Source: Culicoidibacterales bacterium (lineage in GTDB: Bacteria > Bacillota_I > Bacilli_A > Culicoidibacterales > Culicoidibacteraceae). Taken from it: DNA of 24,000 nucleotides. Location of the stretch: contig JBOFTV010000088.1 in the NCBI GenBank assembly GCA_051652245.1, positions 15,969 through 39,968 on the forward strand, in the 5' to 3' direction. Below the pieces are notes generated by a model. It was given only the letters and a program-made list of their open reading frames with translations, was not told the origin of the DNA and searched no databases. How positions within the stretch are numbered: position 1 is the stretch's first letter; every line of letters begins with the position of its first letter. This document shows, in pieces, positions 19,697 through 24,000 of this stretch. The position numbers were made by a program, and so were the translations under genes.

Positions 19697-20398
19697 TTAG
19701 TCAACAATTTCTGATTCCTCAGCAATAATTCCGTCCTCTAGTTCAATGAAATCATCTTCAGCCTCCGATTCCCCTTTTTGCTTTGGTGCTTTTCTATTTT
19801 GCTTGTAAGCATTTGCTAAATCTAAAATTGCTGACCATGCTTCATTTTTTCCCCATGTATTTTCTGCTGATGTTGGTACTAATATTATTCCATCACCTGT
19901 GGTAATGCCTAGTGTCTGTTGGACAACTTTCATATGGGCGGGAAGCTTATTTTTTCCAACTTTATCGGCTTTTGTGCAAAGTACAATCATTGGAATTTCA
20001 TAGTAGCGCAGGAACTCAAACATCTGAATATCATCCTGCGTTGGTTTATGACGGACATCAATCAACAAACAAACGCCCGCACATTGTGACCGTTTTTCAA
20101 AATACATGCTAATCATTTTTGAAAAAGCATCTTTTTGCTTTTTGGGAACTTTTGCATAGCCGTAGCCAGGGACATCGACAAACATTAGTTGGTCATCTAA
20201 TTTATAGAAATTCAGTGTTTGTGTTTTACCTGGTCTTTGGGAAAAGTAGGCCAGCTTTTTACGGCCCACAAGCATATTAATTAATGACGATTTACCCACA
20301 TTTGAGCGACCAGAAAACACGATTTCAGGTAAATCAGAATGAGGAAATTGTTCCTCGTAGACTGCTGTTCTTAAATATTCGGCATTTTTAATTTTCAC
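19697..20398 (-). CDS. engB: Ribosome-biogenesis GTPase EngB/YsxC (YihA)
   Basis: G1 motif GRSNVGKSSLIN, G3 motif DVPGYG and G4 motif TKADK are present. I prefer the GTG start at 20398 (MKIKNAEYL..., AAAGGAAG SD 9 nt upstream). The TTG at 20425 in the ORF track lies inside the lon terminator. An acidic tail of about 35 aa is unusual for EngB. Confidence 0.85.
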   Translation of the reverse strand: MKIKNAEYLRTAVYEEQFPHSDLPEIVFSGRSNVGKSSLINMLVGRKKLAYFSQRPGKTQTLNFYKLDDQLMFVDVPGYGYAKVPKKQKDAFSKMISMYFEKRSQCAGVCLLIDVRHKPTQDDIQMFEFLRYYEIPMIVLCTKADKVGKNKLPAHMKVVQQTLGITTGDGIILVPTSAENTWGKNEAWSAILDLANAYKQNRKAPKQKGESEAEDDFIELEDGIIAEESEIVD

Positions 20399-20422
20399 TT
20401 TATTTAACTTCCTTTTTTTCGG

Positions 20423-20449
20423 CAAAAAATTGCTCCAGAAGGAGCAATT
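20423..20449 (-). terminator. Rho-independent terminator/attenuator after lon
   Basis: Minus-strand AATTGCTCC-TTCT-GGAGCAATT (9-bp perfect stem) is followed by TTTT. It starts about 11 nt after the lon stop. Confidence 0.65.
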
Positions 20450-20460
20450 AATTTACATTA

Positions 20461-22800
20461 TTATCTTTTTGGTAGTGGTGTATCGCTATTGTTAAATGCA
20501 ATTGGGAGAATATCAGCAAGTGTTTTTGCTGGTAAAATCGTCAATGATTCTTTGACTGTTTGTGGAATATCATCAATATCTTTGATATTTTCTGCGGGAA
20601 TAATAATTGTTTTGAGGCCAGAACGATGAGCGGCCATCGCTTTTTCCTTAAGTCCACCAATTGGTAAGACGTTTCCTCTTAATGTTATTTCTCCAGTCAT
20701 CCCAACCGTTCGTTCAACTTCTGTATTTGTTAAAACCGAAATAACTGCTGTTGCAATCGTAACACCTGCTGAGGGGCCATCTTTGGGTACGGCACCTTCT
20801 GGAAAGTGAATATGAATCGTATTTTTATCAAATAATGCCATATCTATTTTCAAGTTTTCGGCCTGTGATTTAACATAACTAATCGCAATCATTGCTGATT
20901 CTTTCATGACATCACCAAGTTTTCCCGTTAATACTAGATTCTCTTTTCCCGGATAAATACTTACCTCAACTGGTAACACATCGCCACCAAATGATGTATA
21001 GGCAAGCCCCGAAACAACGCCTACTTGATTTTCCTTGTCAATTGTTGTGTACCGATATTTAGGTTTTCCGAGGTACTCTTCTAATTGCTCTTCGGTTACA
21101 CGGAATGTTTGTGTCATATCATCACTAAATTTTGCAGCAACTTTTCGACAAATTTTAGCAATTTCTCTTTCTAGTCCACGAACACCCGCTTCACGCGCAT
21201 ACTTTTTAATCATTGTTTTAATAGTTTGCTCTTCTATAATTAAGTTCTCCGGTGTCAAACCTGATGCTAAAAACTGTTTAGGCATAAGATATTTAAGTGC
21301 GATTGCTAATTTTTCTTCTTCCGTATAACTCCCTAATTCGATCACTTCCATGCGATCATAGAGTGGCTCGGGAATACCTGAAAAATAGTTTGCCGTCATA
21401 ATAAATAAGACATTTGATAAATCAACTTCTTCTTCAATATAATGATCAGAAAAATGTGTGTTTTGCTCTGGATCAAGCACTTCTAATAATGCTGAGACGG
21501 GGTCGCCGCGGAAATCACTTGCCATTTTATCAATTTCATCTAAGAGGAAGACGGGATTCATCGTTTTTGCCTTCTTCAGTGACTGAATTATTTTCCCGGG
21601 CATTGCACCAATATAGGTTTTTCGATGACCACGAATTTCGGCTTCATCACGGACACCACCAAGAGCGATTTTAACATACTCGCGTCCCATTGAACGGGCA
21701 ACTGATTTTGCCAATGATGTTTTCCCAACTCCTGGAGGACCGACTAAGCAAATCATTGCACCCGTTGTTTTACCGGTTAACTTCTTCACGGCTAAAAACT
21801 CTAAAATTCTTTTCTTAACCTCATCTAGCCCATAATGATCTTCATTTAAAATAGCCTCTGCTGTTTTAATTGTGAAATCGTCAGCACTCATTTCTGACCA
21901 AGGAATTGCTAGCATCCAATCAATATAGTTGCGAATAACGCCACTTTCTGCTGATGCTGTTGGAACCATCTCAAAACGACCAAGCTCTTCAATTAATTTA
22001 TCCTTAATTGCATCAGGGGCCTTTAATTTCTCAACTTGGACACGTAAATCATCGGCATCTTTGTCTTTTGAATTTTTATCGCCTAATTCTTCACGAATAA
22101 CCCGAAGCTTTTCACGAAGGTAGTACTCCTTTTGCGTCGCATCAAATGACTCACGTACTTCTTTTTCGATTTTCTCTTCAATTTGAACAATTTCCACTTC
22201 TGTATGTAAATCTTTAATAATCATTAAGAGTCGTGAATTTGTTTCCAAGGCATTGAGATACTCTTGTTTTCGTTCAATACTAATTGGCATACTATTGGCA
22301 ATAACATCAGAAAAAGCGGCAGCTGTGTAACCATGAGATAGTGCATCCGCTAGGCGTGAAACCCCTTTACCATTTGACTTAATGTACTGTTCAACACTTT
22401 CAATCGCTGTTCTTAGCAGGGCATACTCTTCTTTTTCATCTCTGCTGCTCTCTTGCTGCTTTTCAATTTCGACCACATAGGCTGTATCCGTGGCTAACAC
22501 CTCATGCACCATCGCACGTGTTTGCACATCAAAAATCAAGCGATAGCTCCCTTTTTGCAGTGGTGTTGACACCTTAATGCGCGCAACCGCCCCCATTGGA
22601 TAAAGCTCATTGAGATCAGCTTCATCTTTTAATGGATCTTTTTGGCTAACAATATAAATGTACCCATCATACTCCTCCATTGCTAGCTGAATTGCGGCAA
22701 CAGATTTTTCTCTTCCAACATCAATTTTCAATTCATTATTTGGAAGAGGAATAAAACCACGTGTAACTATCATTGGCAATTTTTGCATATATTTTTCCAT
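20461..22800 (-). CDS. lon: ATP-dependent Lon protease (LonA type)
   Basis: N-terminal LON substrate-binding domain (LPMIVTRGFIPLPNNELKIDVGR). AAA+ Walker A GPPGVGKTS and Walker B FLLDEIDKM. The protease domain has the catalytic Ser in PKDGPSAG and Lys in GGLKEKAMAA. I prefer ATG 22800 (MEKYMQKLP...; GAGGGA SD 8 nt upstream) over the 22839 start. Confidence 0.95.
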   Translation of the reverse strand: MEKYMQKLPMIVTRGFIPLPNNELKIDVGREKSVAAIQLAMEEYDGYIYIVSQKDPLKDEADLNELYPMGAVARIKVSTPLQKGSYRLIFDVQTRAMVHEVLATDTAYVVEIEKQQESSRDEKEEYALLRTAIESVEQYIKSNGKGVSRLADALSHGYTAAAFSDVIANSMPISIERKQEYLNALETNSRLLMIIKDLHTEVEIVQIEEKIEKEVRESFDATQKEYYLREKLRVIREELGDKNSKDKDADDLRVQVEKLKAPDAIKDKLIEELGRFEMVPTASAESGVIRNYIDWMLAIPWSEMSADDFTIKTAEAILNEDHYGLDEVKKRILEFLAVKKLTGKTTGAMICLVGPPGVGKTSLAKSVARSMGREYVKIALGGVRDEAEIRGHRKTYIGAMPGKIIQSLKKAKTMNPVFLLDEIDKMASDFRGDPVSALLEVLDPEQNTHFSDHYIEEEVDLSNVLFIMTANYFSGIPEPLYDRMEVIELGSYTEEEKLAIALKYLMPKQFLASGLTPENLIIEEQTIKTMIKKYAREAGVRGLEREIAKICRKVAAKFSDDMTQTFRVTEEQLEEYLGKPKYRYTTIDKENQVGVVSGLAYTSFGGDVLPVEVSIYPGKENLVLTGKLGDVMKESAMIAISYVKSQAENLKIDMALFDKNTIHIHFPEGAVPKDGPSAGVTIATAVISVLTNTEVERTVGMTGEITLRGNVLPIGGLKEKAMAAHRSGLKTIIIPAENIKDIDDIPQTVKESLTILPAKTLADILPIAFNNSDTPLPKR

Positions 22801-22900
22801 GTTCATTTCCCTCATTCTCCGTAAAAGATGATTTACCATTTTCTTTTAATCTAAAAAAGGTGGCTACACTTTTATTCGTAATTTTTTTATTTATGTTACT

Positions 22901-22909
22901 ATTATAGCA
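22901..22909 (-). promoter_or_regulatory. Extended -10 promoter element upstream of lon
   Basis: Minus strand reads TGCTATAAT (TGnTATAAT). It lies about 100 nt upstream of the lon ATG. No good -35 hexamer is present. Confidence 0.5.
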
Positions 22910-22945: not shown

Positions 22946-22972
22946 TTAGCACTTTGTCGTCGAGATTGCTAT
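22946..22972. promoter_or_regulatory. CIRCE-like inverted repeat (possible HrcA operator) upstream of lon
   Basis: TTAGCACTT-N9-GATTGCTAT is compared with the CIRCE consensus TTAGCACTC-N9-GAGTGCTAA. It matches 8/9 and 7/9 positions with the exact 9-nt spacer. It lies about 39 nt upstream of the TGCTATAAT box. Confidence 0.35.
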
Positions 22973-22983
22973 TTTAATCAGTT

Positions 22984-23085
22984 TTATTTTTTTTCTTTTT
23001 GTAATTCTTGTAAAAAGCCGGTGCTGATTACGACAATACCGCTGAAAATTAAAATCGTGACTCTGACTTTTCCCATACCTGTCAT
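22984..23085 (-). CDS. Hypothetical 33-aa single-pass hydrophobic peptide (MTGMGKVRVTILIFSGIVVISTGFLQELQKEKK)
   Basis: Found by hand; it is below the ORF-track cutoff. It starts 62 nt downstream of the deaminase-like gene stop on the same strand. It has one TM-like segment and a charged C-terminal tail. The SD is poor (GGTG about 13 nt upstream), so confidence is low. Confidence 0.2.
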   Translation of the reverse strand: MTGMGKVRVTILIFSGIVVISTGFLQELQKEKK

Positions 23086-23147
23086 TGGTGCAACTGCCCA
23101 CCAAAAAGAGGCGGAAAGTTTCAGGTTGAGCTGTATTTGCGTTCACT

Positions 23148-24000
23148 TTATGCCTTAATAAACGACTGCTCAAGTGAGGATTTCCTTAAGTATTCTAGAT
23201 AGCGATATACATCCTCTTCTTCATAGCCAATATCTTTTAATGCGGAAAACACAAGCGAGTATTCATTATTTAGATTTGTTTGAAAGATGGCGCTATCATC
23301 TGTATTGATTGAAATCGGAATATTTACTGCACGCTTTTCTAATCCATGTGCATTAAATTTTGTAAAAGGCAAATCCCGATATTTGTCTGCAATTGAAATC
23401 TTTAAATTTGAGGTTGGATTCACTTCTATCGATATTCCTAAATCTGCTATTTTCCTCATTAATATTATTTGCACCATTTTTACTGATTTTATGTATGCAT
23501 CGTCAATAGTTTTTATGATTGGATTTGCTCCTACTTTCTTATAGTGACTGTCATAATGATACTGCCAATATAGTTTACAGGCATCTTTATTTTCCCTAGC
23601 TTCTCTCACTCTTTTACTTGTTACGTCCTTTTGTTCATATTTTAGCGTGGGAACATACTCCATTTTCTCGAGATATGATTCTGGTTGCTCCTCCCGTAAA
23701 TACATACTTGTATTATAAGTATAGAGATTTGGTACGGATACTTTTGCGGCCTCTCCTTGCTTTTCACATTGATTATATTGCACATAAAAATTATTTATGT
23801 AAATATTATATTGATTTTCCAAATAAGAAAGCACTTCAGGATTTATTTCTCTACTATTTCTGATTAAATCGTGCATCCACACAATATCATCTAGATATTC
23901 CTGATATGTTGAAAATATCATACTCCGCTTCTTTGAAAAATATGTCTCAATGTCAGTTCCAAGTGCCAAAGCATGTCCTAACCTATCACCATGCTTAAAT
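23148..24000 (-). CDS. Adenosine/AMP-deaminase-fold (amidohydrolase superfamily) protein; C-terminal ~283 aa only, the gene continues beyond the right edge
   Basis: The ORF-track 'start' (TTG at 23969) is an artefact. The frame stays open to position 24000 and reads ...FKHGDRLGHALALGTD. The ADA motifs appear in order: DRLGHA (beta-6 'RxGHG' strand), EVNPTSNL ('EVCPxSN' strand) and ISINTDDSAIF...NEY ('SxNTDDP' zinc/catalytic Asp strand). The upstream HxH and HAGE motifs would lie outside the window. Confidence 0.75.
   Translation of the reverse strand, partial: FKHGDRLGHALALGTDIETYFSKKRSMIFSTYQEYLDDIVWMHDLIRNSREINPEVLSYLENQYNIYINNFYVQYNQCEKQGEAAKVSVPNLYTYNTSMYLREEQPESYLEKMEYVPTLKYEQKDVTSKRVREARENKDACKLYWQYHYDSHYKKVGANPIIKTIDDAYIKSVKMVQIILMRKIADLGISIEVNPTSNLKISIADKYRDLPFTKFNAHGLEKRAVNIPISINTDDSAIFQTNLNNEYSLVFSALKDIGYEEEDVYRYLEYLRKSSLEQSFIKA

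Follow-up and report, generated by a model that had tools for sequence, protein, structure and literature searches.

The window, by which we mean the whole stretch of 24,000 nucleotides analysed here from a Culicoidibacterales bacterium, carries clpX, trigger factor, a zinc ABC transporter, a PTS/antiterminator pair, an M32 carboxypeptidase, engB and lon, all of them housekeeping genes, alongside one gene of a different kind at its right-hand end. That gene is read on the minus strand and, as the first-pass annotation of this DNA had stated, its frame remains open to the window edge, with 283 sense codons followed by TAA over positions 23148-23999. The three adenosine deaminase motifs that the same annotation had named (DRLGHA, NPTSN and SINTDD) are all present in the translation, where GDRLGHALALG occupies residues 4-14 of the fragment, IEVNPTSN residues 191-198 and ISINTDDSAIFQTNLNNEY residues 229-247. 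The wide gap that it had described between the GH and NPTSN strands is also real, with 185 residues between the two motifs, and the intervening segment corresponds to residues 15-185 of the fragment (~170 residues). The features that the following discussion relies upon are listed here, with residue numbers referring to the full-length protein described below unless stated otherwise.

20461..22806, minus strand: lon, 781 aa, MGL5043140.1 (100% identical to P0020, named endopeptidase La); downstream neighbour of rdrB
22973..23147, minus strand: spacer between the rdrB stop codon and the lon promoter, dissimilar in sequence to the spacer between FTHFS and lon in the closest relative
23148..24000, minus strand: 3' end of the gene assigned to rdrB, encoding residues 651-933 of MGL5043141.1, plus TAA at 23148-23150
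23295..23306, minus strand: NTDD, residues 882-885; the two conserved active-site Asp residues of adenosine deaminases
23406..23420, minus strand: NPTSN, residues 844-848; barrel strand after insertion 3, NP[TS]SN in all aligned RdrBs
23445..23957, minus strand: segment assigned to RdrB insertion 3 from profile, E. coli RdrB alignment, AF2 model and Foldseek
23973..23975, minus strand: codon of His659 (His9 of the fragment), the last zinc-binding His; equivalent to E. coli RdrB H530 in the alignment with 8fnv_A

Pfam A_deaminase matches the fragment with an E-value of 9e-12, but the match is confined to residues 180-282, the last ~100, and the intervening segment is therefore foreign to ordinary adenosine deaminases. 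This bears out the earlier claim that the insertion is without a counterpart in housekeeping deaminases, the models of which match those last ~100 residues only. The NCBIfam model for RdrB (NF041744) matches the fragment at E=6e-30 and its best stretch, profile positions 537-684, spans the insertion, with the PADLOC RdrB models giving 1.3e-18 and 7e-15. When solved structures were searched with the fragment sequence, the E. coli RdrB chains 8FNV/8FNW were the sole matches. The fragment is collinear with residues 523-781 of the E. coli chain, such that GDRLGH lies opposite residues 525-530, His9 opposite H530 and the inserted segment opposite residues 531 to ~700. The zinc tetrad of the E. coli protein is formed by H152/H154/H498/H530, H530 being the final catalytic histidine, and E501 is its catalytic glutamate (PMC9994260). 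Three insertions specific to RdrB were described in the cryo-EM study of RADAR, and in E. coli the dodecameric shell owes its three-fold interface to the third of them (PMC9994260).

The predicted structure leads in the same direction. An AF2 model of the fragment, built from 20 aligned homologues, has a mean pLDDT of 75.7 and shows the insertion as mostly helical, with means over 10-residue blocks of 85-97 across residues 21-70 and 88-94 across residues 131-180. Foldseek comparison of this model with the PDB returned eight matches with E-values of at most 4e-6, every one of them an RdrB chain, and the next match had an E-value of 2.8. The TMq to the RdrB chains is 0.66-0.73 over the whole fragment. 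Taken together, the profile match, the alignment with the E. coli protein and the fold match across the segment identify it, on the level of sequence and predicted structure, as RdrB insertion 3. A note of caution concerns the Glu triplet E595-E597 of E. coli insertion 3, which was the target of a triple charge-reversal mutant (PMC9994260). This triplet is not recognisably kept in the protein studied here, where by residue counting its counterpart would be Q81-G82-E83 of the fragment, within a stretch of low confidence, and so dodecamer formation in this case would be an extrapolation.

An exhaustive search of 1.84 billion representatives recovered the complete protein (P0145), which is 933 aa long and is 100% identical to the fragment over its residues 651-933. 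It is deposited as GenBank MGL5043141.1 under locus tag ACRC6X_08630, a "hypothetical protein" from a Culicoidibacterales MAG, and it shares a 44,043-nt contig with Lon, its accession being the next after MGL5043140.1; the gene runs ~1950 nt past the window edge. Recovery of the full open reading frame had been suggested in the first-pass annotation, which had also considered a dead enzyme, and what was recovered carries the N-terminal HxH and the HVGE motif. The catalytic residues are found in NHMHLG (H193, H195), YHVGEE (H627, E630) and DRLGHA (H659), with NPTSN and NTDD (D884, D885) also in place, and they are invariant across 21 aligned full-length RdrBs. Only H659 and D884/D885 of this catalytic set lie inside the window. 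Given that an intact 933-aa frame ends in the C-terminus seen in the window, the rdrB gene is itself intact. As judged from the sequence architecture, the N-terminal extension/insertion 1 and insertion 2 are accommodated in the 192 residues before HxH and the 431 residues between HxH and HVGE, and Pfam finds no domain in P0145 besides A_deaminase (residues 830-932), and no CARF.

A pseudogene or split gene had been suspected at one stage from a series of short matches, and this was dropped since the intact 933-aa protein exists. The matches in question, 19 in number, distant and 276-485 aa in length, came from a word-indexed search of a database of 5.8 billion proteins. That search missed the 100% identical P0145 and all of the full-length RdrBs, so absence from its results does not equate to absence from the collection.

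Scores against the curated model also need careful interpretation. P0145 scores 141 bits on NF041744 and does not reach the curated equivalog cutoff of 800, and RdrBs that adjoin RdrA genes in S. sanguinis, Carnobacterium, Erysipelothrix and Vagococcus score between 107 and 153 bits on the same model. Even the RdrBs of validated RADAR systems are only 24-28% identical among themselves (PMC9994260). We suggest that the 800-bit cutoff reflects the clade on which the model was trained and is no boundary of the family, and a score below it may be what lies behind the "hypothetical protein" label at NCBI.

The setting of the gene was examined by comparison with the lon loci of related genomes. In the closest relative found, the Lon of which is 86% identical, the order is FTHFS-lon-engB-ABC-ABC and rdrB is absent. 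Relatives with a 75% identical Lon also lack it, and have either a pur operon, FTHFS and a 307-aa protein gene ahead of lon, or small genes including Imm11 and then lon. The lon loci of these relatives lack rdrB, which is thus an accessory gene at this position. Alignment of the spacer with L085 and L086 shows the lon promoter region to be conserved, with similarity ending at ~22972, ~175 nt short of the rdrB stop, and on this alignment the spacer at 22973-23147 is likely to represent the right-hand edge of an accessory segment. It had been proposed earlier that the AT-richness of the gene pointed to an acquired island. The fragment is indeed lower in GC (0.326) than lon (0.386), engB (0.372) and the window mean (0.360). 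However, the genes of the window span 0.287-0.405 and the GC3 of the fragment, 0.275, is mid-range, so composition alone marks no island here. What survives of that proposal is the part that the comparison supports, namely that rdrB is missing at the lon site of the relatives. In the rdrB-lon spacer a terminator/promoter scan revealed no terminator-like site, Rfam gave no match and the RNA fold z-score was -0.36; no terminator, promoter or accessory gene bearing on the expression of rdrB was identified.

Several observations on the neighbouring genes were made along the way. Upstream of lon, at 22946-22972, lies a CIRCE-like inverted repeat with three mismatches to the CIRCE (HrcA operator) consensus, which we take to be TTAGCACTC-N9-GAGTGCTAA. 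It is the sole match in the window, was matched in 0 of 100 shuffles, and adjoins a TGcTATAAT -10 box at 22901-22909. The repeat is also present in L085 and L086, and this conservation suggests that lon may be under a predicted HrcA-type heat-shock control in the lineage. The engB/ysxC frame at 19697-20425 (minus strand) looks intact, scoring 212 bits on TIGR03598 over profile positions 1-185 of 186, and yet the GenBank accessions pass directly from that of the ABC ATPase (ending in 139) to that of Lon (ending in 140), leaving no number for it; engB may be either annotated as a pseudogene or missed in GenBank. In one related lineage an Imm11 immunity-protein gene lies upstream of lon together with small unknown frames (L087 1332-1661, L088 1188-1613), and in another a 1012-aa ABC/FtsX transporter gene stands between lon and engB (L089 12540-15578).

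No relative more than 55% identical to P0145 was found among the 1.84 billion representatives, and the 55% relative (P0146) comes from the same sequencing run as the relative with the 86% identical Lon, although on a different short contig; a 74-aa stub of a frame upstream of its rdrB (L091) gave no match. Scanning a single genome for each species returned 440 relatives, none above 43% identity, and the best 80 of these 440 (L005-L084) have full-length frames of 753-1061 aa with a median of 871. A metagenome scan with the full-length alignment returned relatives at 23-43% identity only, and one with the fragment alone found no relative. Nearest among the genome relatives are Carnobacterium sp. 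TMP28 (L030) and Streptococcus sanguinis, each 43% identical over the fragment. The Carnobacterium RdrB, whose match to NF041744 spans positions 19-845 of 850, aligns with P0145 end to end over ~930 residues at 37% identity (E=4e-172). A RADAR system of C. iners (A 879 aa, B 852 aa) is included in the published catalogue (Table S1, PMC9994260). RdrBs of this Carnobacterium (L030; C. iners), S. sanguinis and S. suis type are collinear with P0145 and share its catalytic motifs and its insertion 3. P0145 is ~80 residues longer than the nearest genome relatives (933 vs 852 or 836) and, unlike those of Carnobacterium and Streptococcus, comes from the class Culicoidibacteria.

In these relatives the gene is found with a partner. 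The frame directly upstream of rdrB matches the structure of the S. suis RdrA heptamer (8FNU) at 2.9e-107 in S. sanguinis and at 1.6e-54 in Carnobacterium sp. TMP28, so that both loci place an RdrA of the S. suis type immediately ahead of the deaminase. An RdrA profile was built iteratively from the S. sanguinis partner and applied to the loci for which 2.8 kb or more of DNA ahead of rdrB was available. With it we found an RdrA-like frame upstream on the same strand at 72 of the 73 such loci from genomes and 27 of the 28 from metagenomes, 99 of 101 together. The invariant columns of the RdrA alignment include a Walker A motif of the G-E-R-G-S-G-K-T type and a DDLD Walker B. When a profile of 14 RdrAs was run against the 5.8-billion-protein database by the word-indexed route there were 48 matches, none of them from Culicoidibacterales, a miss that carries little weight as the same kind of search also missed the 100% identical RdrB.

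Considering these findings together, we think it highly probable that the fragment makes up the last 283 residues of an RdrB, intact at 933 aa, which is the deaminase effector of the RADAR anti-phage system. An RdrB-like nucleotide-deaminating effector was one of the options raised in the first-pass annotation, and it is the one favoured by the RdrB profiles, the fold, the 933-aa architecture and the complete set of catalytic residues. The accompanying suggestion of an undescribed variant finds no support, and the protein, though divergent and unannotated, belongs to a defence family already described and represents no new kind of system. It resembles E. coli RdrB (8FNV/8FNW/8HR7), with the same His tetrad and Glu, insertion 3 likewise placed after the last catalytic His, and a predicted fold for the fragment that superposes on the E. 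coli protein with a TMq of ~0.7. The two are nonetheless only ~20% identical; phmmer aligns residues 582-916 alone, and homology in the N-terminal part is detectable only transitively, via the Firmicute relatives.

If P0145 behaves as its E. coli counterpart does, its three insertions would assemble it into a hollow dodecamer, with insertion 3 supplying the three-fold contacts of the shell. A heptameric AAA+/KAP-type ATPase of ~800-950 aa, RdrA, would be expected directly upstream, at ~26-28.5 kb in extended window coordinates, and by analogy with E. coli it may dock over each RdrB active site. We infer the presence of rdrA on the Culicoidibacterales contig and, likewise, the oligomeric assembly, substrate and defence activity of P0145. 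For the E. coli system the dodecameric RdrB shell, the deamination of ATP and dATP, with ATP being turned into ITP by EcRdrB, and protection against phage have all been shown, and phage defence has also been shown for the RADAR systems of S. suis and C. rodentium (PMC9994260).

The partner is the point on which other readings of an intact deaminase turn. One could suppose an orphan, left without an adjacent RdrA as the remnant of a rearrangement, or an RdrB that serves another module such as a dITP-sensing effector of the KomBC type. A detectable RdrA is lacking at 2 of the 101 related loci, rdrB is split or degraded at some, RADAR-like modules have been found associated with KomBC (Kongming preprint), and our RdrA profile search returned no protein from the contig of P0145. 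Against this, rdrA lies upstream on the same strand in 99 of the 101, every catalytic residue is kept in the 933-aa frame, the failed search says little given what else it missed, and nothing resembling KomBC lies downstream of rdrB, where the neighbour is lon; we consider such a reading unlikely. A variant of it, in which RdrB is coupled to a non-canonical partner or to an extra upstream module (a dITP-sensing effector, for example) and the deaminase is a signal generator, draws on the deep branching of P0145, its ~80 extra residues and its origin in the little-studied class Culicoidibacteria, and we regard this as distinctly unlikely. KomA of the Kongming system is itself a defence protein of the adenosine deaminase family which produces deoxyinosine nucleotides and acts as the signal generator for KomBC. 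The identity of P0145 with KomA was considered and ruled out by architecture: the HxH of KomA is at residues 15-17 (mutant KomA H15A-H17A), with no N-terminal extension (Kongming preprint). P0145, by comparison, has its HxH at 193-195 and carries the RdrB insertions, which set it apart from the short KomA as that protein has been described. The komB/komC context of KomA is not encountered either, there being no KomBC in the window and lon being the downstream neighbour.

Other deaminases with which the protein might be confused differ more clearly from it. Cad1, a CARF-adenosine deaminase switched on by type III CRISPR cyclic oligoadenylate, is also an effector of adenosine deaminase fold and likewise turns ATP into ITP (bioRxiv 10.1101/2024.12.12.628194). 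The PADLOC CARF_ADA model does match weakly, at 3e-5 for the fragment and 2.7e-8 for the full protein. That match, however, pairs residues 830-899 with positions 486-555 in a profile of 605 positions, which is the deaminase core only, and it is outscored by far by the RdrB models. In Cad1 a CARF sensor forms the N-terminal part and the RdrB insertions are absent, whereas Pfam detects neither CARF nor any other sensor domain in P0145, the significant Foldseek matches are to RdrB only, and the window is without a CRISPR-like array. The Cad1-like option offered in the first-pass annotation is thus already refuted by the domain architecture, and we give it next to no credence. The possibility of a long housekeeping adenosine or AMP deaminase of purine salvage might be entertained in view of the matches of Pfam A_deaminase and several Add equivalog models to the last ~100 residues, and of the purine-synthesis genes found upstream of lon in relatives. 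The Add models, however, reach only 22-50 bits against cutoffs of 216-530 (TIGR01430 50 vs 216; others 24-45 vs 412-530), and the protein has 933 aa with RdrB-specific insertions compared with the compact ~330-aa barrel of Add. Moreover, its gene is missing at the lon locus of relatives with an 86% or 75% identical Lon, and its homologues pair with RdrA and not with salvage genes. Architecture and gene context have already refuted this reading, the probability of which is negligible. A further question concerns what an RdrB acts upon, as the editing of adenosines in host and phage transcripts, rather than the deamination of free nucleotides, was the first mechanism proposed for RADAR in an earlier report (as described in PMC9994260). 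No strong evidence for RNA editing was found in that later study (PMC9994260), and P0145 has the same His tetrad and Glu as EcRdrB; an RNA-editing role seems to us very improbable.

The assignment of P0145 as an RdrB would add a RADAR system to Culicoidibacteria, a class known mostly from metagenomes, through a gene deposited as a hypothetical protein. Beyond this gap in annotation, the biology of the RADAR RdrB has already been described. There is a practical side to the gap, in that the curated RdrB model gives the Bacillota clade ~140 bits against a cutoff of 800, and the Firmicute partners often escape the RdrA models entirely even though they match S. suis RdrA at 1e-54 to 1e-107. As the curated models for both components under-detect the Bacillota clade, automated censuses of defence systems probably undercount RADAR in Bacillota. 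Three upstream proteins illustrate the RdrA side: those at L030 5663-8317, L013 5618-8164 and L020 5716-8289 are matched by neither the NCBIfam nor the PADLOC RdrA models, and all three are recovered by our locally built profile.

The loci of the relatives offer some further observations. At three of them rdrB is split into two frames after an RdrA-like gene (L001 8777-11392, L002 8629-11458 and L003 5505-8334). In L002 the N-terminal frame shows homology to RdrB residues 1-400 (E=2e-57) and has retained HFHL, and in L001 it has only weak similarity to RdrB and is without the HxH[LF] motif. Many representatives of 440-535 aa may likewise derive from split rdrB genes, and the short matches of the indexed search are in part split rdrB genes, with others probably ended by the ends of contigs. 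Directly upstream of rdrA, and on the same strand, a family of ~420-490 aa with a weak TPR signal occurs at 18 loci (for example L041 4134-5558 and L029 3967-5289), and a family of 607-710 aa without a Pfam match occurs at nine (for example L060 3635-5482 and L002 3553-5670). Both are found mostly in loci of the Lachnospiraceae type, and each might represent a third component in some RADAR subtype or simply a conserved neighbour. In the Erysipelothrix and Erysipelotrichaceae loci the R subunit of a type I restriction system is encoded immediately ahead of rdrA (L013 2147-5305, L019 2480-5590), which places these loci in a defence-island setting.
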